64,000 nucleotides of DNA. Source: Bispira polyomma (Eukaryota). The notes under the pieces are model-generated. The model was not told where the DNA came from, made no database searches, and saw only the letters and a list, made by a program, of their open reading frames with translations. Within the stretch, counting starts at the first letter, position 1. Every line of letters starts with the position of its first letter. The position numbers and the translations under genes were made by a program. The stretch spans positions 43,400,001 to 43,464,000 of the forward strand of contig OZ287756.1 in assembly GCA_965649765.1 (NCBI GenBank), written 5' to 3'. Below are positions 20,001 through 62,939 of the stretch, piece after piece.

Positions 20001-20037
20001 CTCAAAACTGTAGGACCAATAATAAGCGAGTTATAAG

Positions 20038-25105: not shown

Positions 25106-25262
25106 TGTCGTATATGAGGTTTAGTATACACCAGCTTTCGGTTGTTGGGCGGACTAAGATGTACGCAAATGTCGGATGACCCGTTAGTGCCCTTGAAGAA
25201 CAGAAATAAACTTTATTATGTTATTTCCTGTGTTTTAGTGAAACCTAACCATAACAGAACTT
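25106..25262 (+). mobile_element. Solo LTR of the same Gypsy element
   Basis: Near-identical to 20038-20198, preceded by ATAAG, lacking the last few bases. Confidence 0.93.
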
Positions 25263-30301: not shown

Positions 30302-33300
30302 TCACATCCTACTTAAATAATCCGCAATGATATTTTTGGAACCTTTTATTGCAACAATTCTAAATTGATAGGGTTGCAATGCCAACGACCAACGCATTAG
30401 TCTACCATTTGCCATCTTTGACTTCCTCAAATATACCAATGGTTGGTGATCTGTCTCCAGCACAAATTCTCTACCATAGAGATACACATTAAACTTCTTT
30501 ATTGCCCAGATAAGTGCAAGTCACTCTTTCTCAATCACAGAATATTCCCTTTCCCTTCTTGATAGTTTCTTACTTGCATATGAAACCGGAAAGTATTGAT
30601 CATCATAACTTTGCAACAAAACAGTACCAATACCACTCTCTGAAGCATCTGTCTGTAAAATGAAATCTCTACTGAAATCAGGGAGTCTCAATATTGGCTT
30701 TGATGCCAACACAACTTTCAATGTACAAAACGCTTTCTCTTGTGCATCTGTCCATTCTATCTTATTTGGCAGGCCTTTCTTTGTCAAATCAGAGAGAGGT
30801 GCGGCTATAGCACTATAGTTCGGAATGAACTTGGAGAAGAATCCTACCATACCAAGAAATGACCTCACTTCCTTCTTGTTTACTGGTCTATGTGCTTGTT
30901 GTATAGTAAACAACTTCTCAGGATTTGGAGTAATGTGTCCTTCACCCACAAGATGTCCCAAAAACTCAACATTCTTGAATCCAATCCTGCATTTGCTTGG
31001 TTTGATAGTAAGTCCTGCTTTCTTTATCCTTGTGAACAGTTCTCTTAATCCATCAATGTGTTGTGGCCAACTTCTTGTATGTGTAAGTATATTATCAACA
31101 AAACTATCACTGTATATCATACCGTTCAACAGTTTCCGCATCACGCGATTGAAAGTAGCTGCCGAGTTCACTAATCCAAAAGCCATTTTCAAGTAACAAT
31201 AACTGCCATTTGGTGTACCAAAACATGTCTTTTTCTTGCTGCTCTTTTCAATAGGTATCGGCCAATAACCTTTTGCAAGGTCGCATATACTAAACCACTC
31301 ATCATCTTGCAATTTGCTATAAATCTGATTTTGGTTCAGTCATAGGTTCTGTTGAAAAAACAGTAATCAAATTTAATTTCCTGAAATCTGTGCAAAATCT
31401 TGTACTACCATCTTTCTTTTTTTTTCCATCTCATCTTCAGATCCGATGACTGCTACTGCAACTTTAGCTAGGACTGAGTCATTTTCACTTTTCAAATAGT
31501 CTGTATCATGTATGACAACACTGGCATTACCACTAACATCAGGATTTCTGGTTGTGTAAAATTTCAATAAATTTGCATGATATATTTTACTTTTCCCATG
31601 CACTTTGACCCTGTAACCATTGCCCTTCAGCAATTCTTCAACTGGATATGGCCCTTGCCATTTCAGCAACAACTTGTTTGTTTCCGTAGGTAGCAAAATC
31701 AAAACCAGATCACCAACAACATAATTTCTTTGCTTGGCCTTCTTATCAAAGTATCTCTTCCCTTTGTCTTGTGATTTATTCAGCTAATCCTGTGCAAGTT
31801 TGCATGTTTCTTCCAATTGTTCCCTCAGATCAACGATATACTGGTAAGTTGTTTTAATTTCTGTAGAATCAAAAATGTTCATAGGTCCCCTTACAGTTCT
31901 ACCAAATAAAAGTTCAAATGGTGAGAATCCCAAACTTGCTTGCGGAACCTCTGTAAGCAAACAGTACTGCGGGTAAATATTTATCCCAATGTTTAGGCTT
32001 TTCTGAGCACAACTTCCTCAACATGGATTTCAACACGAAATGAAACTTTTCAACTAATCCATTGCATTGCGGATGGTATGGTGTAGTCATAAGCTGTTGT
32101 ATGCCAAGCAACCTGCTAACTTCTCGCATAAGTTTTGATGTAAATTGTGATCCTTGATCACTGAGTATTTCACTTGGTATCCCTACTCTAGAAAATAAGC
32201 CAACAAGCTTCTGCCACACGTTCTGTCTCTATCCTGGGTGGAGCAACCGCCTCTGGGTAACATGTTGCATAATCAATCATTGTCAATATATACCTGTTCC
32301 CTGTCTCAGTCGCAGGAGATATAGGACCAACTATGTCAATAGCAACTCTCTGAAATGGAGTATCTATCATCAGAATTTTCTCTACTGGCACCCTTGTAAC
32401 CTGACCCTTTAGTATAGTTCTTTGACACAAATTACAGGATCTACAAAATCTTGTCACATCACCTTGAACACCAGACCAGAAAAAATTTGACATGACTTTA
32501 TCACAAGTTTTTTTGAATCCCTAAATGTCCACCAAATATTGATTCATGTGCCAGTTTCATCACTTTACATCTGAGAGTCTTTGGAACCATCAGCTGTTTC
32601 ACACTTTTCTGATTTTGTTTCCTTGTCTGAAATGTTCTATATAATAATCTGTTCTTCACATCTTACACAGCCGTATTTCCTCCTTTCAGTTTAACGGTTT
32701 CACCTGTTCCAGCCTTTTCAAAGTAGTGCCTTAAAGTTTCATCAGAAGTTTGCTCCTGCTTGAATTTATCTACATCCAATCCAGCATCAATGGCAGGCGC
32801 AGTTTTAAGTTGACTCATAGGTAAACTATTGTTCAAAGCTCTAGTGAGAACAGCTATTGTCTTTTTATCATGTGTTAATGACACTACATCAGAACACCAG
32901 TCACAATTGGGATTGTTAGGATCCCTAACACCCTCAATGTTTCCCAAAACCAAAGGATATATTGGTTTTTCCATACACATAGCTTCAACCTCCCCAACAA
33001 AGAATGGAGTATCTATTTCAATTCTTGCCATTGGAACCTTCTTCACAGTACCATCAATCAGAACACAAAGATGCACCTTTCCTGTATATTGTTCATCTTT
33101 TACCAAACTTGTTTGAATAACCACCCCACTATAACCAGTCTCACGCAATGTCTTCACAACGGTATCACCCACTTTACCATCCATGACTGGTAGATTATCT
33201 ACTTTCCGAATTTTCCTGCGTTGACAAGCTCCTGTTACAATGGTCAGTTCTTGCCCGCATGCCAGATTCAGTTTATTCCCAATAATACAGTCATCACTTT

Positions 33301-33400
33301 TCTTCAACAAATGTAATACACATGAAGCTCCTGTTTCTTGTTCATCATCTAGGATTCCTTCAAGTGACTTTTCTATAAGCGCATGCACCATGTGCACCAC
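30302..33400 (-). pseudogene. Gmr1-like pol: protease, integrase, RT, RNase H
   Basis: LRETG protease-like motif (~33140), integrase HESIFGGHLG/CxxC/DIVGP/SDQG/NGLVE/WQGPY (32550-31600), then RT DLAKGYW/FVDN and RNase H QTDAS/ETDH (31312-30302). Confidence 0.88.
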
Positions 33401-33716
33401 TCATATTGGTTCTCTTCTTGACCCTACATTGATTTGCTAAATGACCTTTGATACCACACTTAAAGCTGGTTTTGTTGGTAAATGTTCTATCTGTCAGTCT
33501 GTTTGCAAATGTTCTGTCTATTGGTCTGTTTGTAAATGTTCTGTCTGTTGGTCTGCTTGTAAATGGACTATATACAATGTATATATTAAGTGTTATTATT
33601 TACTTATGGTTAGCTTGTGCATATGTTTCAGATGAGGTGGCCCAACTCCTTGCCTCATAGAAATAGCTTAGGGCAGAATTTCATGCAGTTTGTCCACACC
33701 AGAACATACAACTATT

Positions 33717-34725
33717 TACAGTACTCTGTGTCTATGCCGTGAACTATTTGATGAACTTTATAAGAGAACTTGCTTACACTGAGAACAGTTAAATTAGATT
33801 TATGAACTTTAATTAATATTGTATACCTGAATGAGTAATATGTGTATTGTGGGATTTTGACTATTTGTTTGTATCGTGGTTATTTTGTTTATATTTGTAT
33901 ATATGTTCTAAAATAATATTCATAAAATTATTTGTTTACAGCTAGTTTCTTTCCATATTCAGTTTAGCCCTATACAATCTATGACCTTACATTCTCAATG
34001 TAACACAGGTACAATACCCTCTCTTTGGTGATAGAGGGTAGAAGTATATCTACGCATTCCTTCACCAGGAAGGTTGGCCAGGGGTCTAACATACAGGTTT
34101 TAGTGGGGGATTTATTTATAGTTTTTAGGAAACTTGTGAAACTTACGTAAAGCCAGAGACATTAGGTGGAGTTCTGGTACGGGGAATGCAACATGTATTT
34201 TTGGGCCAGAGATCATGTTTATGATATTCTTAATTTTTTCACTGAAGAAAACCCCAAATTTTTCTTCCAGAGATTTTCCTGATTTAAATGCTGGATTATG
34301 GACTCAGGTGTAGTATGGAGGAGTCTGCGCAATTCTTGCCAGAGCTTTCGCCTGTTTTGTAAATTTCCTTCAATAACTGATTTGTAGTGATCTCCTTTTG
34401 CTTTATTTAACAATTTATTGCACCATGCAACCTGTTTCCTTAATCTAGATCTAGTGGACTTTTCTCCTTTCTCCAGGCTCGTTCATATTGATAATGTGCC
34501 AGTACAGGATTTAGTGATCCCAGAATAGCCTACTATCAGAAGGCCGCCATATTAGCCGCACCCTTGCATGTCAAACTTAAGAAGATCATTGATGATTGAT
34601 GTCAGTACTCTAAAAATATTGTGTCTATCCGTAATACTACCTCCATGGGTCAAGTGTTCAAATTAGTCTCTCTGCTTATTTTTTTCATTTTTGAGGCTTT
34701 CGAACCTGGTACCACATACGGCCTG
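33717..34725 (-). repeat. ~1-kb inverted duplicate of ~28760-29757
   Basis: Reverse-complement match covering the recombinase fragment end, the CR1 half, the TSD and the outer ~285 bp of the LTR. Confidence 0.9.
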
Positions 34726-35249
34726 GATACAAACTGAATTATTTCTTTGGCAATATAAATATTGAATCATTTGTTCAGTGGCATTGGGTAAATCAGACAC
34801 ATTGTTGTTCATATAGGTGTGATTAAAGATCTGTGTTGAGTAAAGTATAGACTTGAAGGTGTGTCAGATATTAGTGGTTGGAATACTGCTGTTGTGTGAT
34901 TTAAGCTATAAATTTGTGGTAGATTCCACATGGTGCTAATGGTACTGAAATTGGTGGTGTTGTATTACTGATAATAGACGAGTATCAGTAGGATTTAAGT
35001 GATTAGTGCGTTCAAGCAGTAACTTGTAAAACTATGAAATAAGGCAGTCAAGGAATTTAAGGATGTATATGTGGATTATACAAGAGTTACTAGTTGTGTT
35101 ACATTACAGTGTAGGTTGTTGAATGTACATGATATAGGTGTATGATAGTGCCTACTAGACTATGTGTGTTTGATCTTACTGGTGGTTGATTAGTACGTGG
35201 TAAGAGTTTGTATAGTAACTTGTATAGTAGGTTATATACATTGAGAGTT

Positions 35250-36060
35250 GCTAATATAGATCTGCAGAAACTAGTGGATTTAGGTGAGCGATTAGGCTAT
35301 GAGGGACAAGAGTTGCGTGATTTTATGAAGGAAGAACAAAATAAAGAGCGTGAAGAAAGGGCTTCAAAAAGAGATCATGATAAGTCAATGCTAGAAAAGG
35401 AAAAAGAAGCTGAAAGGCTTAAAGCTGAACTCAAGTTTATGCAAGAGGTTAAGTTAAAAGAACTTGATGTTGAGTTAGAGAAGTCAAGAATGAGTGAGGG
35501 TAGGTTTATGGACAGGTCAGACGTTGGTAATTCTAAAGTAATGTTACCAAAACTTGCACAGTTTAATGAAGTAAAAGATGATATGGATTCTTTTTTGTTC
35601 AGATTTGAAAAATTTGCTTCAAGTCAAGGCTGAAAACATGAAAATTGGGCAATGTATTTGAGTGCTCTTTTGTCAGGAAAGACGTTGGATGATTATAGAA
35701 GGCTCGGTAAACAGAAAGTAGATGATTATGAGGAATTAAAAGTTGCCTTGTTAAGGAGGTTTGACCTGAGTGAAGAAGGTTTTAGAAACAAGTTTCGTAA
35801 CTGTAGTATGGAACAAGGTGAAAGTCCTTCACAGTTTATGGATAGATTGCGAAATTATATGGAAAGATGGATTGAATTTAGTGAGATTGAGATGACTTAT
35901 GATGGACTAGTAGATTTGTTTGTGAAAGAACAATTTTTGTCTAGTCTACATGCAATAAAGCATTATCTGTGTTTTTGAAGGAGCGAACTCCTAAGTGTGT
36001 AAAAGACATGGCATTTTATGCTGAACAATATATTGATGCTCATGGAACATCAGGTTTGTT
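35250..36060 (+). pseudogene. Gmr1-like gag (SCAN/capsid-like), inverted relative to its pol
   Basis: LPKLAQFNEVKDDMDSFLFRFEKFA...LSALLSGK...YEELKVALLRRFDLSEEGFRNKFR...KEQFL; internal stop and frameshift. Confidence 0.8.
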
Positions 36061-37699
36061 TGAAAAAGATAGTCAAGGAGTTGGGCCACCTCATCTAAAA
36101 CATATGCACAAGCTAACCATAAGTAAATAATAACACTTAATATATACATTGTATATAGTCAATTTACATGGATGCTAAATATATAATTCACTAAATTATA
36201 TTATAAAATATATTATACATACCCAAACACAGCCAAGTCAAGATTACAGGAGCACAAAGCAGAACCATTCGAATCAAAAACTCTCACCCAACTAAACATG
36301 TACTAGACCCAATATTGCCACATCAATATGAAACAAGGTGTAAACAGCTCTCACAAAGGGTTTTTCTATTCCTACTTCCTAACACAGTAAAGTAACCTCA
36401 AACTCTTAAACACACAATAAACTAAGTAAACTAAGTAAACTAAATAATAAAGAAATAATACAAATAAAGTAATACATATACGTTTCACCCCAAAATAGAT
36501 ACTATAACTTTATGGACACCAACTACACTACTGCTATCCTTGGATAAACACAATTTAGATATATTTAATAACTTCTTAAATAAAGTACCCTTAACTACAA
36601 TGTACACATCTAGGACAAATACATTTTACCTTTACTAATGTCCACATATATACACCTATAAGGTCAAATTATAATACCAATGTCCACATATATACACCTG
36701 TAAGGTCAAATCATAACAACCTGATAAAATTAAACAGGCTGTAGTAACTCCCCTTATAAAGAAACCATCATTACCAAAAAATGACCTTAAGAATTATAGG
36801 CTAGTATCAGGCCTAAGTTTCATCTCCAAGATAGTGGAAAATATTGTTGCAAAATAAATAACAACATATCAGCAAAAATTGTTTAGGTAATCTTCTGCAG
36901 TCTACTTATAAACAGGGCCATTCCACTGAAAAAGCTCTTCTATCCATCAAAAATGAAGTACATATATCTCTTTCAAAAGGTGAACCTACAGCACTAGTCC
37001 TCCTCGACCTGTCGGCAGCTTTCGATACTATTGATTATGCTACCTTGCTTAAATACTTATCGTCCTGGTTCAGCTTTCATGGTACAGTTCTCGAATGGTT
37101 CACCTTATATATCTCAAATCGATTTCAGTCTGTTAAAATAGGCTCCACTCTGTCAGAGTTGTTTAAGCTTGAGTTTGGTGTTCCACATAGGTCAGTTCTG
37201 GTCCCAATCTTGTTTTCTTTGTACACTACTCTGCTCAGTTATATCATCAGCAAACATAGCAATATTAAGTACCACTTTTAAGCTGATGACACACAGCCCA
37301 TGATGCTCCAGCCTTTTGGAATAAATTACTTGCCGAAATTCGTTGTGCAACCTTACTCACATCCTTTAGAAAAAAACTTAGAACCTACCTATTCGACAAG
37401 ACTTTTCCACCATAGCCCTAAATTCACCCGGCATTTCCATGGTGCTGACCCATGCTTGTCTAATGGAAATGCAAATTGAATAAGGATACTGTCCTGTGCC
37501 TCAGAATCCCCTAAGAAGGAGAGAATAAGCTCTCTAAAAGTTAGATTCGATTAGATTAGATAATGGGGCCTTAATGGCCGACAGGTAGTTTGACAGTGTT
37601 ATAGTGTAGTAGTTCTAAAAAGGATAAGAGGTCAACCACTGTCACCTTGGCAAGGGGTTGATGAATGAAGGCAGTAAAGAGTGTGACCCACCAGGTTAT

Positions 37700-38680: not shown

Positions 38681-39199
38681 TGGCCACACTGTGTCCTATC
38701 CCCCACACTATACAGGTCTGAGGTATATTTGTCTGGCTGTACACTATCAGGGGGAGAGTTATCTGCATTACACAAGCCTTATACCCCATCCCAATAAATT
38801 ATATGTCTAAGACGGCCCCAGTCAGAATGGGGATTGCGGTTTTGAATTACTGGATGTACTAGCTGTAAGAGCGAACTGGGGGGACCCCTTTTCCTCATCC
38901 GGTGAGCTAACTGACCCCATCCCCATATTTTGTCTTTGTAAGGATGGACCCAGCCGGCATGGGGATTGTGGTTTTAAAATACCAGATATACTAGGATCAC
39001 TAGGATCCTTTCCTGGAACTCTTACTCAAATTTTTACTAGCAATATCCATCTCAAATCACAATCTGCCGTTCTTTTTTAACCACAATTAGACAACATTAA
39101 TACAGCCTTTCTCTGTTTTAAACTATCTTTTGCCGTCCTAACCCACATGGTAAAAACCTATGGATTCCATTACTTACTGCTCTCTGTTCAAATGTTCAA

Positions 39200-42065
39200 A
39201 TAAACCCTAGGCCTTTCCAATCAAATCTAAAAATTGGTGCCTTTAATGCCAGATCTATCCGCAATAAGGTGCCTTCAGTCACTGCCCTTATTGAAATCCA
39301 AGACCTTGATGTGGCCTGTGTGTCTGAGACCTGGCTCAGCTCCATGGATACTTCTGCATCCCTTTCTGAAATCACACCGTCAGGTTATAGATTGTACCAC
39401 TCCCCTAGGCCTGTCAAGTACGGGGGGTGTTGCTATCTTTGTCAAAGTACCCTTTCAAGCGAAATTCTTAATATTGATTACCCTCCATCTTTCGAATGTA
39501 TTACGTGCAAAATTTCAAATGGATCTCAATCATTTTTATTTTTCTCGCTCTATCGTCCACTTAACCCTTCTATATTTGCCTTCAATCAAGATTTTTCTGG
39601 TTTCCTTGAATCTGTTAACCTCCTCTCGCTGGAATCAATTGTACTTGGTGACTTCAACATCAAAGTCGACATCAATAACACGACAACCAAAGATTTGTAC
39701 AGCCTCTTGAATATTTTTAAATTCAAACAGTTTATTTCCGGTCCCACTCATCTCCATAACCACATTCTTGACCTGATCATTGCTCGACCAAACTGATACA
39801 GGATGTATGGGTTACTGACGGGGTGTCTGACCATCTTGCCACTTTTGCACATCTCATGCTGCCCAAACCACTGTCACACAAACCTAAGGTAATAAAATTC
39901 TGCAACATTAGGAAAATTAATATTCCCAAATTTCGGGATGACATACTTGCTTCTCACCTAATTAAACACCCTTGTAAAAATGCAGAAAGTCTCAAGCTAC
40001 AATATAACCACACTTTGTCCTCAATCCTTAACAGTCATGCTCCTTGGGTTTCTAAAACCCTCCCACTTTCTGACCCCCATGAATGGACCAACCCAGACAT
40101 CAAGAAAGCTAAAAGGCGTAAACGTCAACTTGAGCGGCTATGGCGGTGCACTAAATCATCACTTGACAGGAAGTGCTACAGAATCGACACAAACCACTTC
40201 AATGCACTAATGACAAGAGCCAAAAAAGAGCACTATGAATTGATCATCAATGAGAATTCAAATTCACCCAAAAGGTTATGGAGCTCCATAAATAAAATAC
40301 TCCACCGAACAGCTAAAAAAGTTTTACCTGCAAATCATTGCCTCATATTTCTTGCAGAAGTATTTGGAATTTTTCATTGAAAAAAATAACTAAAATTTGA
40401 GAAGGTTTTTTAACAATGCTACAAAGTCTCAAATCTGCTACATTTACCCACTTTCCGAGAACGATGTTCTCCAACTTATAAAATCCAACTCCATCAAGTC
40501 CTGTGAACTGGATTCTATCTCTGCCGCTGTTCTAACAGAATGTCTAGACATTCTCATAACTCCTATCACCAACATCATAAACTTTTCGCTTAGAGATGGT
40601 ATATTTCCCTCTTGTTTCAAAACTGCATATGTCGCCCCCTTGCTAAAAAAACCAGGCCTTGACAAAAATGGGCTAAAAAACTATAGACCAGTCTCTAGCC
40701 TCAGCTTTGTATCTAAATTTATTGAGAAAGCTGTTGCTAAAGAAATTCATGACTACCTTTATAAACAAAATCTAGCTAACTGCCACCAATCTGCCTACAG
40801 AAAATTTCACTCCACTGAGAGTGCCCTCCTTTCAATCAGTAATGACATTAACCTTGCCTTGGATCATGATGAAACTGTACCCTTCTCGATCTCTCTGCAG
40901 CTTTTGATACCATCGACCTTGGCCTACTCTTTGACACCCTTAAACAGTGGTTTGGTCTTAATGGTACTGTTTTTGGTTGGATCAAATCGTACCTTGCTCT
41001 TAGAACCCAAAAAATCAAATTGGGCGACCACTTTTCATCCTCTTTTAACCTACCATTTGGAGTACCCCAAGGGTCGGTTCTCGGCCCTTTACTGTTTACC
41101 CTCTACACCCATCCTCTCAGTGCAGTCATCAATAATAACAATGTTAAACATCACATGTATGCTGATGACTGTCAAATCTCTCTCTCTCTTAACACTCAGA
41201 ATGCCAGATACAACCTGGATTAACTTGCTAACTGTCTCTCCTCAGTTCAGGCGTGGATGAACTTCTCCAAACTGAAACTAAACCCTGAGAAAACAGAATT
41301 TATCCTTATTAGAAATAAGAAACACAGTGAATACTTATGATCACTTTTCCCAATTACTCTGCTGGGCAATGAGATTCAACCTGCAGACCAGGTCAAAACA
41401 CCTAGGTGTCACTATCGACCCTGCTTTTTCATTTCTTCCTCACATTAACAGCATCCACCGCTCCTGTTATTATCACATTTGAGACCTCAAAAGAATCAGA
41501 AATTATCTGTCACTAGATATTGCTATCACTGTGACCAACGCTCTTGTAAGTAGCCGCCCTAACTGCTGTAATTCTCTTCTGTATGAAGCCAATAAGTCCC
41601 ACATAAACAAGTTGCAGTCCATTCAAAACTATCTATGTAGAGTTATCTTTCGTTTAGGAATCCGTACTGATGTCACTCCATACCTCAAGAAACTTCACTG
41701 GCTTCCTATTCACTATCAAATCCTGTTTAAAATGCACATAACCATTTTAAAGCTGTTGTCTCTCAACAGCCTCACTACCTTGCTAATAAACTCTCTTTCA
41801 GCAGCCTTAAAATGGGAAAAGGACTCCTTGTTTCCTCTAAAAAGACTGCTTGAAACACTTTTGGGATTTAGGAGAAACCGTAAAACCTATCTCTTCAGGC
41901 TCGCCTATCCGCCGTAGTCCTCTTCCTGGGAGCTGACGCATCCATCCTTACAACCTGGCTGTGTTTTTTTCATTTTTCTATTGGCTGATTGATTCTGATG
42001 TTGCGACTTAGAAGATGCCTATCACCAATAAGGCGCATTAAAAATGTATAATACAATACAATACT
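39200..42065 (+). mobile_element. CR1/L2 LINE ORF2 (APE endonuclease + RT), near full length but frameshifted
   Basis: VSETWL, LYRP, VLGDFN, PTH...LDLI, SDH, NYRPVS.L, QSAYR..HSTE, GVPQGSVLGP, YADD, LHWLP and an (aatac)n tail. Confidence 0.9.
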
Positions 42066-49163: not shown

Positions 49164-49451
49164 ACAGCATTCATTCCATGACTACAACATATATGAAGAC
49201 TCGGTTACTTGTAAAATAGCGCACAAACATAAATAAAAGAATAAAAATAAAGTGTAAAATAAGTTTAAAGAAAATTTGAAAGTTTGTAAAATGGCGTTCT
49301 ACCCTTTCAATTTCTTAAATTAAAGTGAGGTTTTATGGCTTTTGGCGGGAATAGCTATAGAATCTAGGCCAACTGCCATCCAATAAAACGCAAAGGTCAT
49401 TGAACCAGAATGGTTTTAGTAAGAGAGTTTAAGGTCTGCACTGAACTCACT

Positions 49452-49483
<32 letters not shown>

Positions 49484-49790
49484 ATGGGTCTACCTAGCAT
49501 ACTGTATTACATGTTATGCCATGTATTTTGTAGTTTTTTTGATTATCCTTTATGTTTTATATATCACCTCATAGGATCATACTTTCTACTACTTAAGGAA
49601 ATTTTATTATTCCTTCAATTTTATTCATATTCATTTAACTTATCTTACTGATACCTATTGACAGTTTATTAAAAACTCTGTCTTTTTTTCATTTTTACCA
49701 TACTTCTCCATTTGTATGTTGAATTGTTACGATCAATTCTTACTTTATTCATCAGTTTAATTAAAGTATGGCTTCATCTTCACATATTTA
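49164..49790 (+). repeat. ~620-bp direct repeat, copy 1 (copy 2 at ~61795-62385)
   Basis: acagcattcattccatgactacaac...aaagtatggcttcatcttca occurs twice. Copy 1 has a ~29-nt poly-C where copy 2 has tccc. Confidence 0.9.
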
Positions 49791-50960: not shown

Positions 50961-51550
50961 ATGTTTTGTGTATCACCTCATAGGATCATACTTTCTACTA
51001 CTTAAGGAAATTTTATTATTCCTTCACTTTTATTCTTATTCATTTAACTTATCTTACTCATACCTATTGACAGTTTATTTAAAACTCTGACTTTTTTCAT
51101 TTTTACCATACTTCTCCATCTGAATATTGAATTGTTATAATCAATTCTTACTTTATTCATCAGATTAATTAAAGTACCACTGTAGTAATGTGATTTACAC
51201 ATCCAACATGTTATGCCATGTATTTGTGGTGTTTGCATAGCAAGTCCACCCCAGGGGACTGCTACATCAGTCCAACCTCCTTTTTCTATCACACTACTTT
51301 AATCCCTAGCGAATGCAATAGCATTATCCAACTTTCTGTCCATCTGGGCCTTGTCCAATCACAGCATTAGCTATTAGTGACCCCTAAGCTAGGATAGCTA
51401 TCCTCCATATTGAATTTGTGTTTTCACCTGTGAACAGGACATTTAGAAAATTGAAATTTTAACCACGTATTTACACTGAATTGGTTTTATTTATATTTTA
51501 TTTTTTTTTATTAACTGACGTGGTACGGGAACTAGTGATTGTTGTGTGAA

Positions 51551-52783
51551 ATGGGGAAAACAAAAGCAACTCCTGTGTTAAGCAGCAAGAAACGGACCAC
51601 AAAGACAACTTCAACTAGTACAGCCAAGAAAAGGGGTACTGGTCAGGTAACTACTACTAATACTCACGATCAATCAGAAATACATAGAACAGTCATTGCC
51701 GACACTGCGTGTCCTCTTATTGATTCTCAGTTATTGACCAGTTCAAATGGATCATCTAGCCAAGCCGGGCTCTCATCTCAGGCCGTACCCCAGTCACAAG
51801 CCGAGTCACAAAGCATGTCCGAGGTTCTTTCCATCCTGCGTGGTCTGGAGACCTCCAACGCTAACATAACCCGGCGATTGCAACTCGTAGAGGACAAACA
51901 GACAGTTACACCCGCTAATTCTCCATTACACACCATGAGGGATGGTACGGTGGTCCAACAGAGACACGAGGGTTATTCGTTACCTCTTCCCCCTCCCAGG
52001 TACAACGGGGTCGCGCAGCCGCTGGCTCAACCTATGATGCAACCACCAACAAGTCAGGGTTACAACACAGATGGCATTGTCCCCAGTCTCGATGCATTGA
52101 GATCTTTTCCAAACGTGCAGGCGGCCGTTACCAGGCAGCTGGCTGACTACGAAGCCTTGGCCCAGAGGGGTCTAGTCCAGGGTAAGCACTCAATCAGGCA
52201 GAAGTCTAGTCGTTATAACTCCACAGATATTACTTTAGCTGATCCCCAACTCAGATGGTCTAACGAAGGTTGGGGTGGGGGATCGACTCGTCGAAGGCCA
52301 GTCTTTGACGACCTCACGTTGCCGCAGTGGGCGGCTGGCCAGCTGGCCAACTCGCTACAAGTAAGTGATCCGGCAACAATGAAAGCTATGGTGAACCAAG
52401 TGGTACACGCACTACGGGATGCAGCCACACTTCCGTGGCCTGCTGTCAGGACAGCCTGGGCTGTCAGTATGCATGAGATCGAGGAAGGCAGGCTGTCCTG
52501 GCAGGACAACACTCAGTGGGCACTGAATCGCATCAGTGCCTCCCAGATGGCTATGGTAGGCAACAATGGCAGTAACTTGGCTAACGGGGCTTCTTCAGAT
52601 AGTAAATCCATCTGTAAGCTGTTTAATAATGGAAAGTGTACTCACAAGGCGGATCATGGCAATTATCGTCATGTATGTTGGTGTTGTAATAAGACATTAG
52701 GAAAGGACGCGTCGCACCCAGTGTTTAAATGCTTTAAAGCGAATGTAAGTAAACAGCCAGACAAACAACAAGGTAACATCTAG
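51551..52783 (+). CDS. Gag-like ORF1 of element A with C-terminal Cys/His zinc fingers
   Basis: Open 410-codon frame; FDDLTLPQWAAG, W..VR...A...HEIEEGRLSW and CKLFNNGKCTH...HVCWCC...H....C. Confidence 0.85.
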   Translation: MGKTKATPVLSSKKRTTKTTSTSTAKKRGTGQVTTTNTHDQSEIHRTVIADTACPLIDSQLLTSSNGSSSQAGLSSQAVPQSQAESQSMSEVLSILRGLETSNANITRRLQLVEDKQTVTPANSPLHTMRDGTVVQQRHEGYSLPLPPPRYNGVAQPLAQPMMQPPTSQGYNTDGIVPSLDALRSFPNVQAAVTRQLADYEALAQRGLVQGKHSIRQKSSRYNSTDITLADPQLRWSNEGWGGGSTRRRPVFDDLTLPQWAAGQLANSLQVSDPATMKAMVNQVVHALRDAATLPWPAVRTAWAVSMHEIEEGRLSWQDNTQWALNRISASQMAMVGNNGSNLANGASSDSKSICKLFNNGKCTHKADHGNYRHVCWCCNKTLGKDASHPVFKCFKANVSKQPDKQQGNI

Positions 52784-53718
52784 GGCCACGATTCACAACC
52801 AGTCGGACGAACATTAGGTAGTGATAAGGGTAATTCAATGATGAACGGTAACAGTAAATTTGTAAAAGAGTTTAATATAAAGGACAAAAACAGTGAATTA
52901 GGTTATTGCGACAGAAGTATGTCTGAAATTAATACAATTGTGCAAAGTTCCAATAGTAATGATTATCAGCAGATGATAATGTCAGATAGTACAAGGTTTG
53001 TCAATAATGTATTCAACACTGATATAAAGGTGAACTTTGTTGATAATGATGTCTTTAATAATTTTGCAGTTTCAGTAGATGCTGGCGACAACTACCAGTA
53101 TGAAACCAAGAATGTAAATGAATGTATTCAATTTCAGAGCAGGACCCAGTCGGGTCACCATAGATGGGACAGGAGCACTGAGGCCTGCATTTCAAATGGG
53201 AGCAGTCACTATGCTAATTCACCAGCTTGGAACAAAGAGTCACACACGTGTCAGGTATCAGTTACCAATTGGAAAACTTTTTGTGGGGAAATTCAAAACT
53301 TGGCCCCAATTGTTTACATTAGGGATAGGGATGGAAAATTCTCAGGTTATTTCCACATGTTTTATGACGTGACTGCTGCCAAGTGTGTATATGCTCGTGT
53401 TGAATTTCCACCTAGCCAAAACCTTTGTATTATTCAAACCTTCACCAGGCTGTGATCAAGCAAGCTGCTGATACATTTTATTATTTCGAAAGAGATAATG
53501 CCTGTTTCAAGCAGTTGGGTTTTGATTATACTGAATACATGAACAGGTTAGTAAATGCACTTATTAGTGACAGTGAAGACGAAACACCTGACAGTTGCCA
53601 TAAGTCAGACAATTGTGCAGACTTGTCAAATGTAAGTACACAAAAACCAAGTGAGACTGTAAACAGTCTGATTTGTGATAAAATATACATGAACTAGTCG
53701 AGCAATGAATGCACTCAA

Positions 53719-55518
53719 ATGGTTGATAGTGTTCGAGCAAACAAGGATTTGTACAAAGAAATTAAGGACTTTAATGACCCCGAGAAAACCATGGGTTTCT
53801 TGGCACTTTCCTCAACAGCATTCACATTCATAGGTCCTGACAAACCTGTTGAGAGAATTGAAACAGTAGAAGACATGCTGCAAGTGGCTTCTGTTATCAG
53901 AAACACTGCACTTCCCAATTATAGACAAGCAAGGGTTCCCCTGGTGTCAGGACTTAATCCAGATGCATGGGATGAAGTTTTCCAAGATTATCCTGACCAG
54001 TTGCTGTGTCAGTACATTAGATTCGGCTTTCCTCTTTCTCTCACCAATCCAGAAATGCTTAACAATGCCTCTGTCACCAATCATTATTCTGCCCTCCAAC
54101 ACACAAGTAATGTGAGAGAATATCTGGTTAAAGAAAGTAATAAGGGTGCCATGTTGGGCCCAGTGAAGGAGGTTAGCTCCTCCCATTACCATTGTTCACC
54201 ACTTCTCACACGTCCCAAGGACATTACTAGTCGTAGGGTAATTCTTAACCTCTCATACCCACAAGGTAATTCGCTTAATGAGAATGTTGATAAGGATATA
54301 TTTGATGGGAAAAAATTTATTCTGAAATTTCCTACAATCGATGATATTACTAGTGCGGTCAAAGTCACAGATGATCTGGTATTGTTTAAAATCGACGTAG
54401 CTCGCGCTTTCCGTAATTTGCGTGTAGATCCTGTCGACGCTGTAAAATTAGGAATCCAGTTTGAAAAGGGTAGTTACATAGATCCTGCGGTGGCGTTTGG
54501 CTGGATTCATGGCAGCGCGGCGTTTCAACGCTGCTCTGACGCAATAGCGTCATATATGCGCAAAAACGGTTTCAATATGTTCTGCTATATCGACGATTAC
54601 ATTTGCGTCTCCAATAGAGTAGAGGCTCACGGGGGTTTTCAGATTTTGACCAAACTGCTAGACTATTTAGGTCTCCCCATGAATGCCAACAAACGCACCC
54701 CACCTAGTACTAGCATTACTTGTTTGGGTATTAACATTGACACTGTCGCTGGTACTATTAGCATCCAGCATGGGAAAATAGAAGAGATTCTTGAATGTGT
54801 GTGCGACGTGTTTAACAGGCGCTTCATAACGCACAGTTGTTTTCAGTCCCTCTTAGGGAAACTTCTGTATGTGCACAAATGCGTCAAGCCGGCACGCACT
54901 TTTATTAATAGACTGCTTCACGCATTTAGAAACAACAAGGGTAAGAAGAAATTTGCTATTTCTCAAGACATGCGGAACGACTTAGCGTGGTTCAAGCAGT
55001 TCTTACAGACATTTAACGGAGTAACTTTCATTGACCATCCTATGATTCAAAACATGAGTGAGTTACATTTAGACGCTTGCCTTACCGGTTTAGGAGGCGT
55101 GTGGAAAGATGAGGTGTACGCTACACCATATTTCAATGTTTTTGGCAGAGAGTTGACAATAGTTCACTTAGAGATGCTGAATATCATTCTCGTGTTTCGT
55201 GTATGGGCGTTAAAGTGGGCGCATCAACGGGTTTTGTTTCACTGTGACAACATGGCCGTAGTACTGGTTGTGAATTCACAAAAAACTAAGGATGACTTTC
55301 TGGCCTCATGTTTGAGGAATATCTGGCTGCTAGCAGCCACACATGACATCACAATTGACATACAACACATTCCAGGAAAAAACAATGTGATTGCAGATGC
55401 TCTTTCTAGACTATTATCAGATAAACCTCCTACTGCAGAGCTAACTGTTAAATTACAAAATTGTTATAAATGGAATGAGGTCCCTATAAGGTACTTTGAC
55501 CTGGCCTTATCTGTGTAA
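53719..55518 (+). CDS. Reverse transcriptase/RNase H of element A
   Basis: FGFPL, NHYSA, KIDVARAFR, YIDD, LDAC, HLEMLN, HCDN, IPGKNNVIADALSR. The upstream linker (52838-53697) has a frameshift and a stop. Confidence 0.92.
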   Translation: MVDSVRANKDLYKEIKDFNDPEKTMGFLALSSTAFTFIGPDKPVERIETVEDMLQVASVIRNTALPNYRQARVPLVSGLNPDAWDEVFQDYPDQLLCQYIRFGFPLSLTNPEMLNNASVTNHYSALQHTSNVREYLVKESNKGAMLGPVKEVSSSHYHCSPLLTRPKDITSRRVILNLSYPQGNSLNENVDKDIFDGKKFILKFPTIDDITSAVKVTDDLVLFKIDVARAFRNLRVDPVDAVKLGIQFEKGSYIDPAVAFGWIHGSAAFQRCSDAIASYMRKNGFNMFCYIDDYICVSNRVEAHGGFQILTKLLDYLGLPMNANKRTPPSTSITCLGINIDTVAGTISIQHGKIEEILECVCDVFNRRFITHSCFQSLLGKLLYVHKCVKPARTFINRLLHAFRNNKGKKKFAISQDMRNDLAWFKQFLQTFNGVTFIDHPMIQNMSELHLDACLTGLGGVWKDEVYATPYFNVFGRELTIVHLEMLNIILVFRVWALKWAHQRVLFHCDNMAVVLVVNSQKTKDDFLASCLRNIWLLAATHDITIDIQHIPGKNNVIADALSRLLSDKPPTAELTVKLQNCYKWNEVPIRYFDLALSV

Positions 55519-55524
55519 TTTCAG

Positions 55525-56498
55525 GTTCTGCCAGTTCCACTCATACACTTGTTCAATCAGCCTGCAACAGAATAGACTTGGCACTGCGACCAAAGACCAC
55601 TACAGCTTACAGTAACCAATTCAAGACATTTTTAGCTTTCTTACATGTTGCTGGCATTAAACACATTAATGTTTCATCAGTTCTGGCTTTCTTAGAATAC
55701 TTAGCACAGAATAGCCTTTCACCGGCTGTCATTGCCAATTACCTCTCATCACTTAAATTTATGGCTAACAAATTACAGTGGAGTATGGCTCCTTTTACAC
55801 ACAACTCTGTTTCTTTATTTACGAGAAGCATTACCATCAACTCTACTTTCAGGCCTAGACCTAAGGGATTGTTTGATATACATCAGTTAACACAGATATC
55901 CCAAGCTTGTCAGATATTGCAGGATCCAGTACTTTTTAGGGCCATTTTCCTTCTAGCCTTTTTTGGCTTCTTGAGACTTTCCAATCTGGCTTCTCACTCT
56001 AGGGCAGCGTTTGACCCATCTAGGCACTTTCTTAGACAGGATATTATCTTTGCCCCTCCTGGGGCCCATGTCATCTTGAAATGGGCTAAGAACCTTCAAA
56101 ACAGATCAGACTCCCACATTATACAAATTCCTGTACTTCAAAACCAAATTTTATGTCCAGTAAGGGCTATACAGCAGCTTATCTTGTCTAGGCCTCTCCC
56201 TCCATCTGCACCACTGTTTGCAGTTAACTCACCACCATTTTACCCAGTCATAGAGACACATGTGAGAGTCGCATTACAGAGAGTTTTAGAACACATAGGC
56301 ATTCCATACCATTCACACGGGTTCCACACATTTAGGAGGTCGAGGGCCACATTTGCTTTCAATAAAAACGTATCACTGCAGAATATTATGTCCCATGGCC
56401 TGTGGAGGTCTTCAGCTGTATGGACCTACCTACAGAAGACCTCCCAAGCTGCTTCAGTGGTGCCTCTCACCTTTGCTGCGGCTATCCCTCCTTCTTAG
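55525..56498 (+). CDS. Tyrosine recombinase of element A (no ATG start; begins at a splice acceptor)
   Basis: GFLRLSNL, WAK, HTFRR, HGLW, VWTY give an intact R-K-H-R-W-Y set. Preceded by aatttcag| at 55524. Confidence 0.9.
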
Positions 56499-56844
56499 TT
56501 GGGCTTGGGGCTTAAAATTCCATCCTGAAATTTTAACTGAATTTGATTGTCAACCTGTACATAAGCTAACATGTAAATAAAAACCTCAAATGCAATCTTT
56601 TACTGTCTTATAATAAACTTACTTATTAACTTATAACTTATCACACCACCATTGGACTGTGTAGATTATCCCATTTTTTTTCTCTCCTTTATACATGTTA
56701 TGCCATGTTGTGTGGAGTTTTAGGATACATCCCATTTATTTACAGTGCCCTGACCTTGAGTTTTTAAGAAATTGACCTTGCAAGAAAGACTAGCAGTTGG
56801 GATATATATATTTAATATATTCCTACACATATAGTTACAATTGA

Positions 56845-57133: not shown

Positions 57134-58126
57134 CTAGGAAGTAGAAATAGGGTTAAGAAGGGATTGGAGAGGTAGGGCTACCTGGTCAGAGGCAGCATGG
57201 TCCTGAGTGATATATCTCCACACACACTCAGAAGACCAAATGCCCTGACTTTGAATGTCTTGAAGAGGAACATGGACGTTAAAGGCCATTGTCGCCCCAG
57301 AGCGCCGAAAAGTATGGAATGTGATATTAGCTTGCGTTTTGTTTAGTCTGCTCAAGATATCCTTAAGATTTCTACGTATTTTGCTGTCAGTAAGGGTTAT
57401 CCACCGAGAATTAGTTTTAATTTGAAACAATGGGGTGTTCTTACTGCCTGGTGTAATTGCCAGCAATTTTTTGAGGGCTGTAACCGGGCAGATGGTTTTA
57501 TTTTGCAGTGATGGAATTTTAATGGCTTTGATTGTGTCTCTAGCTTGTAAAGTTTTTGTCCATTTTATGATTATATGGGCACCTGGAGGGGCGAAGATAA
57601 TATCAACCCTAGCTAACTGGTGCAATGGTGAATAAGTAGCTTGAGAGTGGGGGACTAAGTTAGAGATTTTGAGGAAAGAAAAGAAGGCAAGCAGATAGGC
57701 TGCCTTGTAAATTTGCCCCATATACATGGAATCACAGATGGTGGCTATGTTTTGCAATAAATCGATGTCTATAATGCCATTTATTTTGGCTTTGAATGGT
57801 TTGTTTAGCACCAGAGCTTTTTGAAAATATTTAATTCTTTGATCTGCAAAAGCAGTAATTTGGAGACCATACAATGACATACTAGCCTTAATGGCGGCGA
57901 GGTAATTTGAAACAGAAGTATGCGACGTGTTGTTCACTACTAATACTTCTAGAAAGGCTAGCACTGATGTGGGGGTAATATTGTAAATTGAGATGTTAGC
58001 AAAACAGCAGTAAGCTAAAAAATACTTTGAACATGGCTGCGTATGCTTTTTGTGTAGAAGGGCGAAAAGCCTGATGTGCTCTATAGGCTGCTCTTTCTGC
58101 AAGCTTTGACACCCAGGTTGCAGAGC
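57134..58126 (-). pseudogene. Tyrosine recombinase of element B, disabled
   Basis: FSFLKISNL (catalytic R replaced by K), HTFRRSGA, VWRY. One extra T in the run at ~58017-58022 shifts AFRPSTQKAYAAMFKVF out of the main frame. Confidence 0.85.
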
Positions 58127-58143
58127 CTGAAAAATTTATAAAG

Positions 58144-59800
58144 CTAAATTGACCAATTTACCTCTAGGAGGTCATCGTTGACCTCTATCCAAGTAGGATT
58201 TTGCATTAATTCATTTAATTTTGCTTCATTATTAGGGGTAATAGCCCATCTGGAGAGTAAGTCAGCTGTAACGTTTCTTTTACCAAGGATATGTACAGTT
58301 CTTAACTCTATGTCTACCTTTGCAGCTTCCATATAAATGTTTCTGGTCATTGCTGCCAGAGTAAGATCATATGTCTTGCCTGAATTTAGAATAGATACAA
58401 CAGCTTGATTGTCACAATGTACAAGCAATTTGCGTCCAGTCCATTGATTTTTCCAAATTCTGATTGCAACTAAGATATTAATCATTTCGAGATGGACTAT
58501 GGTGTAATTTCTATAGCCAAGCCAAATTTCTTTGGTATAAACTTCATTATTACAGCAAGCACCTTGGCCTTGCAGACATGCATCTAGGTGTACCCGATCT
58601 GTTACCGGTCTATGTTCACAGAAAGTCATGTCATTAAAGCTTGTGAGAAAAGTGTTGAACCAATTGAGGTCCTGATGAAATGTTATATCAAGCATATTTT
58701 GTGAACCCCTTAGGGTATCTAGCATTCTATTAAGATAAGCTCGTGAAGTTCTGACACATTTGGAGATGTATAATAATGAACTGAGTAGAGATTGAAGCTC
58801 TTTTTTGGTGCATGCTTTTTTATTAGTCCATGAATGACATATTTGCTTTATCTCAGTGAGTTTAGTTTCCGGTATGGACACAGTAAAATCCTCTGTATTC
58901 ACTAGAACCCCTAGACATATTACTTTGGTACTAGGTGGAACTTCTTTTTTCTGGCTAATGGCAAATCCTAATTTTTGGAAGAGTTCTTTTAGTTTTTCAA
59001 ATGAGTCGCCAATTGTGTCTGAAAGGCCGTAACCAATGACGTCATCTTTATAGTTTATGACGTCATGACCTAGTGACGTCATCATAAACCGAATCACGTC
59101 ACTGAGGCTTTGAAATATTGCACTGCTGTGGCGATAGCCAAATGGCAGGCACGTGTCAATATAGTAGTCATTGAGTTGAAGCCCTAGTAGGTCATAGTCG
59201 GCTGGGTCGATCTTTATGTGCCTAAATGCACGACTAATGTCTAACTTATATAATAATGCTCCTTTACCTAATTTGACAATATTCCGAGTAATGTCATCTA
59301 CTGTGGGAAGCGTGAGAATAAAAGGAGTATCTAAATACTGATCTCTATTTATAGCTGAGTTGACTGCTTGGCCTTGTGGGCAACTTAAGTCAGTTATTAC
59401 TCTACGGTGCTTAGCATCCGGTTTAGGCCAAGTCATGAAGGGAGAGATATGTAATTCAGATAGTGGGGGTTCTTTGAATGGTCCAATTATTGCACCAAAT
59501 TCTTTTTCTTCTTTAAGATAAGCTTTCACATCATTTTCGAGCAAAGTTGCAGAGCTATGATTTGCTCCCTTATTTTCTAGAGGACAAGCTCTATTAAAGT
59601 CTAGGGGAAAGCCGAATTTAATGAGATGTATCAATTGATTATCCCAGTAATTGTCTAAGAATTTTTCCCATTCATTGACCTGTAGTTGAGAGACCACTGG
59701 TATCTAGGCCCCCAGGAAATTTTGACAATTTTGACTTTTGACAACTTTGTGCAATTCTAGTGGATCACCTGAGTTCCTAGAGGAATAAAACCAAACTTTT
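58144..59800 (-). pseudogene. RT/RNase H of element B
   Basis: KFGFPL, NHSSA, KLDISRAFRH, YKDD, LDAC, HCDN, ADLLSR. In-frame stops at ~59705 and ~59757. Confidence 0.88.
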
Positions 59801-60505
59801 CTTTATTTTGGCTGTTCCATTTCTTGAATAGGGGATTGTTTTCTGCCTTTGCAATAACCTCCCTGTGTTTTCTTTTTATCTGAAGTTGTACTTCGTATTT
59901 GTCCTCACATTGACTACTAGGGACATTGTTAGCCGTTTTGTCATTAGAATAGGATGTGGTATCATTTCCAGTGAAATTTTGTAGGGGTGTGAATCTATTT
60001 TGACAAATTATGCCACCTTTGTCACTCTCCCCACGACCCCACGTTTCTCTAGAGATTACCTTGTTGACTCCATTCATAGCAGAGGTGCGACTCTGACCAT
60101 TGTTCTGGTCCTGAACATTTAATTGAATATTTTCTAGACATTTCACACCACACTGTGGGGTGTGATATTATTTCTTCATACCTTCATGAATTTTCCTGAA
60201 ACTGTGTGCATTATTTACAGATACAGTTGTGTACATTTTATTATTGATACTTGAGCGACAATTGGAGGGACTTTTCTGGCCATTTCTTATTAACCTTTCA
60301 GAAGAATACTTTTGACCTTTAGTACCCATGTTTTGTTTCACTACTTGAGCATAGGATTTGTTTGCAAACCTAGCCCAGTCAGCCCTCCAATTGTCACTCT
60401 GGTTTTTGACATTAGTGTTATGTACAGTACGACTACTACAATACTGATTCTGATCTTTGTTATATACAGGAATATTACAATCATATTTTCTATTATAACC
60501 TTTAT

Positions 60506-60539
60506 GCACTGCTGTACTGCAGTGCCTTACTCGTTTTTT
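60506..60539 (-). promoter_or_regulatory. Candidate -1 ribosomal frameshift signal at the gag-pol junction of element B
   Basis: A AAA AAC (60539-60533) in the gag frame, 7-nt spacer, then the hairpin GCACTGC-agtaca-GCAGTGC. The -1 frame is open into ORF 60168-60509. Confidence 0.75.
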
Positions 60540-61579
60540 GAACCATTATGCTCAGCAAATTTGCTAGTCTTGTTCCTGTTACAATCTTTTGAGGCATGTG
60601 GAAACGATTTGCCAAAGCCTAAGCAAGTAGCACAAATGTGCAAGTACATCTGCCCCTTCGTCTCATGATCAATTTTATGAGGGCATGAGCCTTTTTGGAA
60701 GTATCTGCAAGGGATTCCCTTGTCACTTCCTTTATGAACCCTATTTGAATTTGTAAATGTAGAATGACTGGTATTATTGACTACTTTTTGGGCATGGGCC
60801 CTTCTAATTCGATCAATTTTGGTGGTCTCTTCCCACGAGACTTTGCCTTCCTCCATGCGACATAACAGGACTGCATGACTAGCTTTCGCTGCCGTCTAAG
60901 AAAAATCGTTACAGTCCTCCATAAGATCTTGAGCATAGTCTAACATGGCATTTTTTAAATCGACATTGTTCTCGTCCCTAACTATTGAACAAAACCCCGA
61001 AACCCATTGCGCCATAGAAAGGCTATCATATGTAGTGCGAGTTTTTGTAGTACCTCCTAGAATATGGTTCTGAGGCCAGGCAACCTGGCGTTTTACCCAA
61101 ACAGTATCAGTTCCACCTCTTTGTGACTTAAAATTACCTTTCTCATTTATCCCAGCCAAGTCACGCAGCCTTGAATCCACAGCATGCTGGAGATACTCTG
61201 AGGTTTTCAATGTAGTCAGTGAGGGGACCAGTGTGTCTTCTTTATCTGTAACCGTGGCCAGTGTAGGTTGAGACATCACTGCCTGGACATCAATAGGAAC
61301 AGTCGACTGCACGGACGTGGCTGCAGCCACAGGACGGGTCACTGGAGCTGTTGATACAGCGTTGGCTGCAGCAGCATTGGCAATTTGACTGTTCTCTGTC
61401 CGCTCCACACGTCTATTCAGACCCTTAAGTTCTTCCAATATGTGTAGATTTATCGCCGCACTAGAAGTGTCACTTTGTTCAGTAATTTTAGGTTCATTTA
61501 CAAAAGGACAATTGTCATTTATCGGTTTTCTATGGCTTGTTTTGCAAGCTCTACAATCATATGTAGCACGAGGTGCCAT
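60527..61579 (-). pseudogene. Gag-like ORF1 of element B (W-to-stop at 60896-60898)
   Basis: N-terminal CRACKTSH...C, YDSLSMAQWVSGF, MLDY..DLMED..DFS*, and C-terminal CRYFQKGSCPH...HICATC...H...C. Confidence 0.85.
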
Positions 61580-61794
61580 TTTTCTGCAAATATAAGCACA
61601 AAGATCTTTGGTATATGCGGATTTTACTGGTTGAGGTTGTAAACTTTCTAGAAAACAATTTTATTAAATTTCAAATCAAATTAATGACATCCCTCAACCA
61701 TAGCCCTAAAAGAAGAGCAAAATTCGCATATATCAAAGATATTTTGACAAATCACTCCAGTCAGGTGCCAGCAAGTTCACTTTTTTAATCCAGA

Positions 61795-62385
61795 CAGCAT
61801 TCATTCCATGACTACAACATATATGAAGACTCGGTTACTTGTAAAATAGCACACAAACATAAATAAAAGAATAAAAATAAAGTGTAAAATAAGTTTAAAG
61901 AAAATTTGAAAGTTTGAAAAATGGCGTTCTACCCTTTCCATTTCTTAAATTAAAGTGAGGTTTTATGGCTTTTGGCGGGAATAGCTATAGAATCTAGGCC
62001 AACTGCCATCCAATAAAACGCAAAGGTCATTGAACCAGAATGGTTTTAGTAAGAGAGTTTAAGGTCTGCACTGAACTTACTACTCCCGATGGGTCTACCT
62101 AGCATACTGTATTACATGTTATGCCATGTATTTTGTAGTTTTTTTGGATTATCCTTTATGTTTTGTGTATCGCCTCATAGGATCATACTTTCTACTACTT
62201 GAGGAAATTTTATTTTTCCTTCAATTTTATTCATATTCATTTAACTTATCTTACTGATACCTATTGACAGTTTATTTAAAACTCTGATTTTTTAAATTTT
62301 TACCATACTTCTCCATCTGTATATTGAATTGTTATGATCAATTCTTACTTTATTCATCCATTTAAATAAAGTATGGCTTCATCTT
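61795..62385 (+). repeat. ~600-bp direct repeat, copy 2
   Basis: Matches 49164-49790. Confidence 0.9.
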
Positions 62386-62939
62386 CATGGTTATCTACGG
62401 TTTGCCTATACCACTGTAGTAATGTGATTTACATATCCAACCTACTCTTGTACATTCTGCTTTCACAGATAACCATGACAATTGAATCTGCTACAAGGTC
62501 TAGTCCACGATGTCACTTTACAACAGACTACCCTGTAGCAGTGTCCTCAGCCACATTGTTATCCACGGGTCAGAGTTCAGACACTTCCAAAGAGCATTCC
62601 TCCACCCAAACAGCCTTGCTGTCATAGGAGAAGGTCCGAGTCTATGTCCAAGATCATTACTAGCACCGTTCAGATGCAGTTAGAAGCCAATGGGGTGACC
62701 AATGTCTCACCAGCAGAACTAGGACCACAAACTGGGTAATTACAGGTCTATACAACCAGTCTACCAATGAGAGATTAGGCCGTGTTACTTTGCCAATACT
62801 TACGTGTATCATTTGGTCCAATGTGTATCTGACTTTCCACTTTTACTAGGTGATTGAAATAGTGGAGATTGGAGCTACCACCGTTTCATCAGCCATCCAG
62901 CCTTCAACATTACACAGACACCAAACTCCAGGATAAATC

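Follow-up and report, generated by a model that had tools for sequence, protein, structure and literature searches.

The stretch analysed here, termed the window below, comprises 64,000 nucleotides (nt) of contig OZ287756.1 from Bispira polyomma (assembly GCA_965649765.1, positions 43,400,001 to 43,464,000) and carries a retrotransposon, element A, which fits the Ngaro-like type and encodes a gag-like protein, a pol with reverse transcriptase and ribonuclease H (RT/RH) and a tyrosine recombinase (YR). The recombinase of this element is very probably expressed from a predicted spliced RNA, as a fusion with residues 1-210 of Gag. Directly present in the sequences of the element A family are a splice donor within gag, a splice acceptor in front of YR, the matching phase of both sites, their conservation, and the lack of any ATG before the N-terminal domain of YR.

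The YR frame is open from 55500 to 56498 and preceded by a stop codon at 55497-55499. Its first ATG, at 55761, corresponds to residue 88 and thus lies past the SAM-like domain (residues 28-86). The predicted acceptor TAATTTCAG/G (the slash marks the cut) begins with the TAA that terminates RT/RH (55516-55518); its AG ends at 55524, 62 nt upstream of the R-P motif of YR, and base 55525 is of phase 1 in the YR frame. The donor has the context CCAGG/GTAAGC and closes a gag exon of 631 nt, i.e., 210 codons plus one base, at 52181. As donor and acceptor are both of phase 1, they join in frame to give a product of 534 amino acids (aa), and the predicted intron measures 3343 nt in the window copy and 3410 nt in copies without deletion. 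The start-less YR frame, the acceptor overlapping the RT/RH stop, the gag donor and the in-frame join with the first 210 Gag residues had all been claimed in a first-pass annotation of the window and were confirmed here. A splice is not demonstrable from one sequence, as the region contains nine donor-like matches (51300 to 55600) and 13 AGs (55440 to 55640).

For this comparison 60 of 121 YR matches and 20 of 125 matches from a second search were picked by hand across the identity range, and six metagenome loci and both elements of the window were included. Clustering at 85% YR nucleotide identity resulted in 18 families of clade A, 13 families of clade B and six singletons; a later pattern search added seven further families. 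Within the element A family the donor is intact in 16 of the 17 copies which hold the region. The sequence G/GTAAG is present in all 17 aligned clade-A families (18 in total; L088 was not aligned), in which Gly211 is invariably encoded by GGT and Lys212 by AAG. Among the conserved columns, 35 of Gly and 24 of Lys, no others are restricted to one codon; the median share of the top codon is 0.50 and 0.64, respectively, and AAG is the minority Lys codon (170 of 422). One of 31 Asn columns is fixed as well, so codon fixation is possible elsewhere. Twelve of the 13 clade-B families carry AG/GTA (10 of them aligned; L097 and L106 are frameshifted), and the donor is missing in L100, a single copy. 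A scan of gag, pol and YR, with the 5' untranslated region left out, placed the gag donor first of all conserved donor-like sites in clade A (4365 aligned positions) and its homologue first in clade B (4293 positions), with scores of 7.8 and 7.0 versus 6.4 and 5.9 for the respective next conserved site. In the metagenome loci, a phase-1 G/GTAA in front of a KSGR motif was found in all four gag open reading frames (ORFs), one of them weak. Among the further families, the five having gag each showed the donor in at least one copy, and one of three copies of the L150 group has GC at this position.

The acceptor is conserved to a similar extent. Distances were measured from alignment anchors on the R-P motif, and by hand for the metagenome loci L111 and L112. 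Of 20 copies of the element A family, 19 retain the AG, two of them with a 30-nt duplication behind it. A phase-1 YAG ends 62 nt upstream of the R-P motif in 17 of 18 families of clade A (the exception, L069, carries a deletion) and in 12 of 13 clade-B families, the site of the frameshifted copy L100 being one base off. All five metagenome loci with a YR 5' end have a phase-1 acceptor 59 or 62 nt before the motif, and it was also detected in six of the seven further families. Ranked by upstream T content, the site is first of 12 conserved YAG sites in clade A and second of 20 in clade B. The residue spanning the acceptor AG varies (S, A, T, V, L) and YA/G remains constant, which points to selection on RNA and not on protein. 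In every family where both sites are readable, the phase of the donor equals that of the acceptor. Judged from this conservation, the splice-signal pair of the Ngaro-like element is real. Comparison with relatives had been suggested along with the claim that YR derives from a spliced mRNA; donor, acceptor and phase proved to be conserved among metagenome contigs and across families whose YR identity is as low as 29-46%, which supports the claim as a predicted RNA.

A different route to the recombinase has been published. According to Poulter and Butler (2015), as quoted in the section of PMC13003380 covered here, the YR frame of Ngaro elements is shifted by -1 against RT/RH, with which it overlaps, and its translation probably relies on programmed frameshifting, so that a Gag-Pol-YR polyprotein would be formed. 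Element A shares the short overlap with these elements: YR lies in the -1 frame relative to pol in 16 clade-A families, and the overlap comprises 10-55 nt in most clade-A families and 16 nt in the element A family. Slippery heptamers occur in the overlap of two of the 16 families (L060 and L086), and clade B is evidently capable of a classic -1 signal, located at its gag-pol junction. Nevertheless, no heptamer of the type X XXY YYZ was found in the pol/YR overlap of the element A family, of 14 of the 16 clade-A families with a -1 frame, or of clade B. Moreover, YR is found in frame 0 in L078 (3/3 copies), L095 and L104 (2/2 each), L101 and L106, and in frame +1 in L091 (4/4 copies), L100 and L108, i.e., also in multi-copy families; L094 and L099 have mixed frames. 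In both clades the gap between the pol stop and the acceptor AG is 6-28 nt long; three metagenome contigs have gaps of 24, 253 (L114) and 334 nt (L111), the two largest containing stops in the YR frame. As YR occurs in all three frames and up to 334 nt away, a -1 frameshift cannot explain this arrangement, and it leaves the fixed GTAAG in gag unexplained. A ribosomal route would need changes among the families, whereas a splice would not. We therefore regard the polyprotein as highly improbable, and in contrast to the frameshifting proposed for Ngaro in the cited section, the evidence from element A points to splicing onto gag.

Alternatively, YR could be a free protein whose translation reinitiates downstream of the pol stop or starts from an ATG or near-cognate codon close by, in which case the splice-like sites would be incidental. 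Eight of the 18 clade-A families have an in-frame Met nine codons past the acceptor, and in the L148 group, four copies of which have no donor, a Met is located seven codons past it; free YR is thus possible in these families. Near-cognate codons are present at 55509, 55518, 55572, 55578 and 55584. On the other hand, there is no ATG between the acceptor and the R-P motif in the element A family, in eight other assessable clade-A families or in any family of clade B, and the Met position is also occupied by L, V, F or I. An ATG-initiated YR in relatives had been named beforehand as speaking against the splice; the Met does exist, yet all eight clade-A families carrying it retain both donor and acceptor. 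A free YR is consequently very unlikely as the general mode of expression.

Finally, the acceptor may be real but joined to another 5' partner, such as a short upstream or host exon or a spliced leader, with the gag GTAAG serving, e.g., to block early termination through U1. U1 has such a role at the donor of Copia elements in the part of PMC5580714 considered here, and an acceptor-like TTTGCAG before the gag ATG of a second element in the window (element B, see below) leaves room for other 5' exons. The equal phases of donor and acceptor in every readable family argue against another partner, as does the scan described above, in which no other conserved donor-like site scored close. This possibility appears extremely remote.

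Besides the two slippery heptamers, the Met codons of eight clade-A families and the calibration of the coiled-coil model described below, several results weigh against a spliced Gag-YR fusion. The spliced RNA is a prediction, and the junction was not seen in DNA. Three read runs on the contig were treated as DNA because of their even depth and single-copy deletions; the joint of 52181 to 55525 is none of the 14 joints listed for them. A motif-pair search for intron-less copies, the motifs of which fit 39 of 51 clade-A and 13 of 20 clade-B copies, yielded no matches in either clade. A looser search gave 42 matches. Inspection of 31 of them revealed no intron-less copy, and the remaining 11 have beginnings like those of the inspected families. 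Intron-less copies are not required if YR is expressed by splicing. In the L148 group the donor GT is missing in four of five copies, which are at least 99.7% identical. Furthermore, the families are related, and the counts given above refer to non-independent events.

The four donor-less copies of the L148 group (L155, L157, L158 and L159) share at least 99.7% identity along some 8 kb as well as an extended gag frame, and the donor GT of L148 is missing from them. They may have been spread in trans or inside a larger duplicated unit. YR matches with long open frames or a start at residue 10 turned out to be fusions of the pol and YR frames, deletions or 30-nt duplications.

In protein databases no Gag-YR fusion was found among 120 listed of 252 YR matches, nor among 17 gag matches or 150 listed representatives, judged by length and coverage. 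This absence is uninformative because the entries look like single-ORF gene calls. YR proteins in the databases frequently start with M-I-S-G, which at the protein level is indistinguishable from calls of GTG or TTG starts. A gag-YR splice was not described in the literature searched on Ngaro and DIRS elements, in agreement with the first-pass annotation, which knew of no such report; an earlier mention, for instance in the main reviews, is possible.

Expression of pol seems to follow a separate rule in each clade. In intact copies of the element A family, gag, its TAG and a pol of 933 aa share one frame, and TAG-G terminates gag in all 15 folded loci of clade A (folding was restricted in both clades to loci with an unbroken gag end). 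The pol of element A is likely produced by UAG readthrough. A second splice leading to pol was considered as well; the sequence upstream of the gag TAG-G is A-rich and no conserved acceptor ranked near the pol start, for which reasons readthrough is preferred. No shared RNA structure was detected after the clade-A gag TAG (z between -2.2 and 1.6). A CARYYA-like word is often located four to six codons past the TAG-G in this clade. All 12 folded loci of clade B show the heptamer A AAA AAC/T with a hairpin of the GCAC/GCACTG type behind it (weak in L106), and intact copies have pol in the -1 frame relative to gag, so the gag-pol junction of this clade is likely a -1 frameshift signal. The heptamer lies before the gag stop and the hairpin after it, in the window at 60540-60505 (minus strand) and in L091-L110. 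In three metagenome elements a TGA precedes an in-frame pol. As far as these signals tell, the mode of recoding differs between the clades and the splice stays.

Together these signals suggest the following scheme. One transcript would start in the A1 repeat and be either left unspliced or spliced. The unspliced RNA would give rise to Gag, to Gag-Pol by UAG readthrough, and to the template for reverse transcription. In the spliced RNA, gag codon 211 would be joined to the start-less YR exon, skipping the remaining gag and all of pol, and the 534-aa fusion would be translated.

What the Gag portion may contribute was deduced from structure models. Gag consists of a basic N-terminus, a coiled coil, a helix at residues 187-209, a helical domain and a Cys/His-rich C-terminal domain, and gave no Pfam or NCBIfam match. 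The AlphaFold2 model has a mean predicted local distance difference test (pLDDT) of 68; a single-sequence model with a pLDDT of 39 was unusable. Fold searches with the Gag model revealed nothing clear (best Z 5.0, no Foldseek E value under 1). The donor maps to residues 211-215, a linker with a pLDDT under 50 which follows the helices 83-117 and 187-209, and the region behind the linker is confidently folded in the model. A model of Gag 82-212 in three copies showed a coiled coil over residues 85-117 and scored 0.49, the best of three controls reaching 0.02 (contact agreement of 21% or more, partner pLDDT of 42 or more). In the calibration, the score mark applied was attained by 21 of the 30 solved pairs and by none of 23 single chains. 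This calibration used two copies and has a weak eukaryotic part, with one of seven reaching the mark among those without an older solved relative; the result for the trimer may reflect generic coiled-coil likeness. Chances are about even that the coiled coil in the fusion would pull YR into the Gag particle, the cut omitting the helical and the Cys/His-rich domains. Alignment of the Gag N-termini revealed a C-x2-C...H...C motif in L111, L114, L115, L116 and clade B which is missing in clade A and would belong to the fusion protein in those families.

In a wider sense, it is rather probable that a broad Ngaro-like group makes YR only as a spliced fusion with the Gag N-terminus, by an ancient phase-1 intron holding pol, with particle loading through the coiled coil and with recoding that switches freely between UAG or UGA readthrough and -1 slippage.

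The features of element A and its neighbor are listed in Table 1. The family comprises at least 40 copies with an identity of 96% or above in the 1.04 Gb searched (75 contigs); the DNA searches for family copies scored the best 40 of 314 and the best 40 of 227 candidates. The family has the 5' terminus TGCATAGC and the 3' terminus CCATTGGACTG, and full copies are arranged in the order A1 (223 bp), gag, pol, YR, B1, A2, spacer and B2. This complete pattern of split direct repeats was found in nine of 20 family loci (L032, L037-L041 and L043-L045 among L031-L050). In the window copy only A1 and B are present and A2 and B2 are absent. It is also broken, since it is 67 nt shorter than the family at 53442/53443 and its pol linker carries stops up to 53697. 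Further copies composed of A1, ORFs and B without the A2-B2 part, with host DNA on both sides, are L031, L034, L049 and L050 in addition to 51234-56659 of the window; they may derive from recombination between B1 and B2.

Table 1. Predicted and observed features of element A and its neighbor in the window (a slash marks the splice cut).
Feature	Position	Strand	Basis or remark
A1 terminal repeat, 223 bp	51234..51456	+	Same 5' end in family copies; repeated internally as A2
gag-like ORF1, 410 aa, ATG at 51551	51551..52783	+	ORF and alignment
Predicted coiled coil, Gag 83-117, kept in the spliced product	51797..51901	+	Helix H83-117 in model; trimer model
Predicted donor AGG/GTAAGC, phase 1	52179..52187	+	Last exon base 52181
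Predicted intron, 3' half of gag and whole pol	52182..55524	+	Deduced from the conservation of both splice sites
TAG-G at the end of gag, same frame as pol, predicted readthrough site	52781..52784	+	Clade-A comparison
pol (linker, RT, RNase H)	52784..55518	+	Pfam RVT_1 and RVT_3
pol stop and predicted acceptor TAATTTCAG/G, phase 1	55516..55525	+	AG ends 55524
YR exon without own start, SAM-like domain and catalytic region	55525..56498	+	Pfam, alignment, motif check
B repeat, about 154 bp, ending CCATTGGACTG	56506..56659	+	Comparison of family copies
Element B, second YR retrotransposon, broken	57134..61579	-	YR 36% identical to that of element A

The recombinase matched Pfam Phage_int_SAM_1 with residues 28-86 (E value 1e-06) and weakly XerC/XerD, and it aligns with the Phage_integrase-positive protein of element B. 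A motif check detected R, K, HxxR, H and Y, which we take to be the catalytic motifs of the recombinase. No sequence match to the YR profile was obtained from the PDB. The C-terminus of pol extends about 35 aa beyond the RNase H match, and none of five full pol proteins matched a methyltransferase family in Pfam at E values up to 1. The repeats of the family are direct and not inverted, and there are no inverted repeats of 40 nt or more in the 51-57 kb region of the window. No SGNH ORF was seen, and in full copies the stretch from A2 to B2 is devoid of ORFs reaching 150 aa.

By domains, gene order and split direct repeats element A fits an Ngaro-like YR retrotransposon, and the defining features given in the parts of PMC4157794 and PMC9210276 covered are matched by the family. 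The order gag, RT/RH, YR is the same in DIRS-53_XT from Xenopus (PMC9210276) and Bou1 from newt (PMC13003380), as far as these are described in the sections concerned. The split direct repeats are of similar size, with 223 and about 154 bp for A and B in element A and 236 and 152 bp in DIRS-53_XT, according to the same portion of PMC9210276, and both element A and the Ngaro-like elements described in those sections are without a methyltransferase. PAT-like and DIRS1-like elements, in the excerpts of PMC4157794 and PMC3266345 considered, likewise combine RT/RH with YR, and PAT elements also have split direct repeats. However, both groups possess a methyltransferase region, which was not found in the pol of element A, and DIRS1-like elements have inverted terminal repeats with an internal complementary region, which were likewise not found. 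Neither assignment applies to element A on the features found.

In retroviruses, the env mRNA is spliced from a 5' donor to an acceptor located where pol ends, so that pol is skipped and a third gene expressed. Gag-Pol is synthesized by UAG readthrough in murine leukaemia virus (MLV) and by a -1 slip in human immunodeficiency virus (HIV). No more than a few residues of Gag are present in the env of avian sarcoma-leukosis viruses, and the integrase of retroviruses belongs to Pol. Element A resembles retroviruses in the predicted splice that skips pol for a third gene and in the likely recoding between gag and pol. It differs from env in that this third gene encodes the integrating enzyme, and the product would carry 210 Gag residues including the coiled coil. 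The likeness to env drawn in the first-pass annotation therefore holds for the skipping of pol and is only partial beyond it, as the predicted product is a Gag-YR fusion without an ATG of its own. For Ty1/Copia elements of Arabidopsis, the section of PMC5580714 covered describes a conserved alternative splice that sets protein stoichiometry, as that of element A would; the Copia splice results in a short Gag-only RNA with early termination, whereas the splice of element A would remove pol and add the recombinase.

If correct, the splice would establish a retrovirus-like plan with three products in place of the printed frameshift model. In the parts of the papers on DIRS-order elements covered here, translation of the recombinase is untested and the expectation stated for Ngaro is a frameshift. 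The conserved splice defines an exact junction which can be tested in any RNA-seq data set, and predicts a Gag(N)-YR protein of about 534 aa versus a polyprotein of about 1,670 aa. It also suggests a particle route for an integrating enzyme that is located outside Pol. The YR ORFs of these elements would then be annotated without their true N-terminus, which is of importance when they are expressed for biochemistry.

The second YR retrotransposon of the window, element B, has a donor AAAG/GTAATT of phase 1 with the last exon base at 61138 and an acceptor TTTTTCAG/G ending at 58127, both on the minus strand. The acceptor-like TTTGCAG mentioned above is situated at 61590-61577 (minus strand), five bases upstream of its gag ATG, and a 5' untranslated intron in element B is possible from this signal. 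Elements A and B are arranged tail to tail, about 80 bp apart (56659-56741), separated by an AT-rich repeated sequence, and both are without the A2-B2 part. The 5' end of element B together with its outside flank is duplicated with 92% identity (49164-49782 and 61794-62387).

The remaining window contains further repetitive DNA. A tandem repeat array with a unit of 146/147 bp extends from 17621 to 26167 and is interrupted by an element of the long terminal repeat (LTR) type at 20386-24311 with RT, RNase H and integrase matches. The segments 28759-36718 and 39122-41260 hold long inverted repeats flanking an RT/RNase H fragment on the minus strand (30521-33400), as well as a broken element of the endonuclease-RT type that resembles long interspersed nuclear elements (LINE-like).

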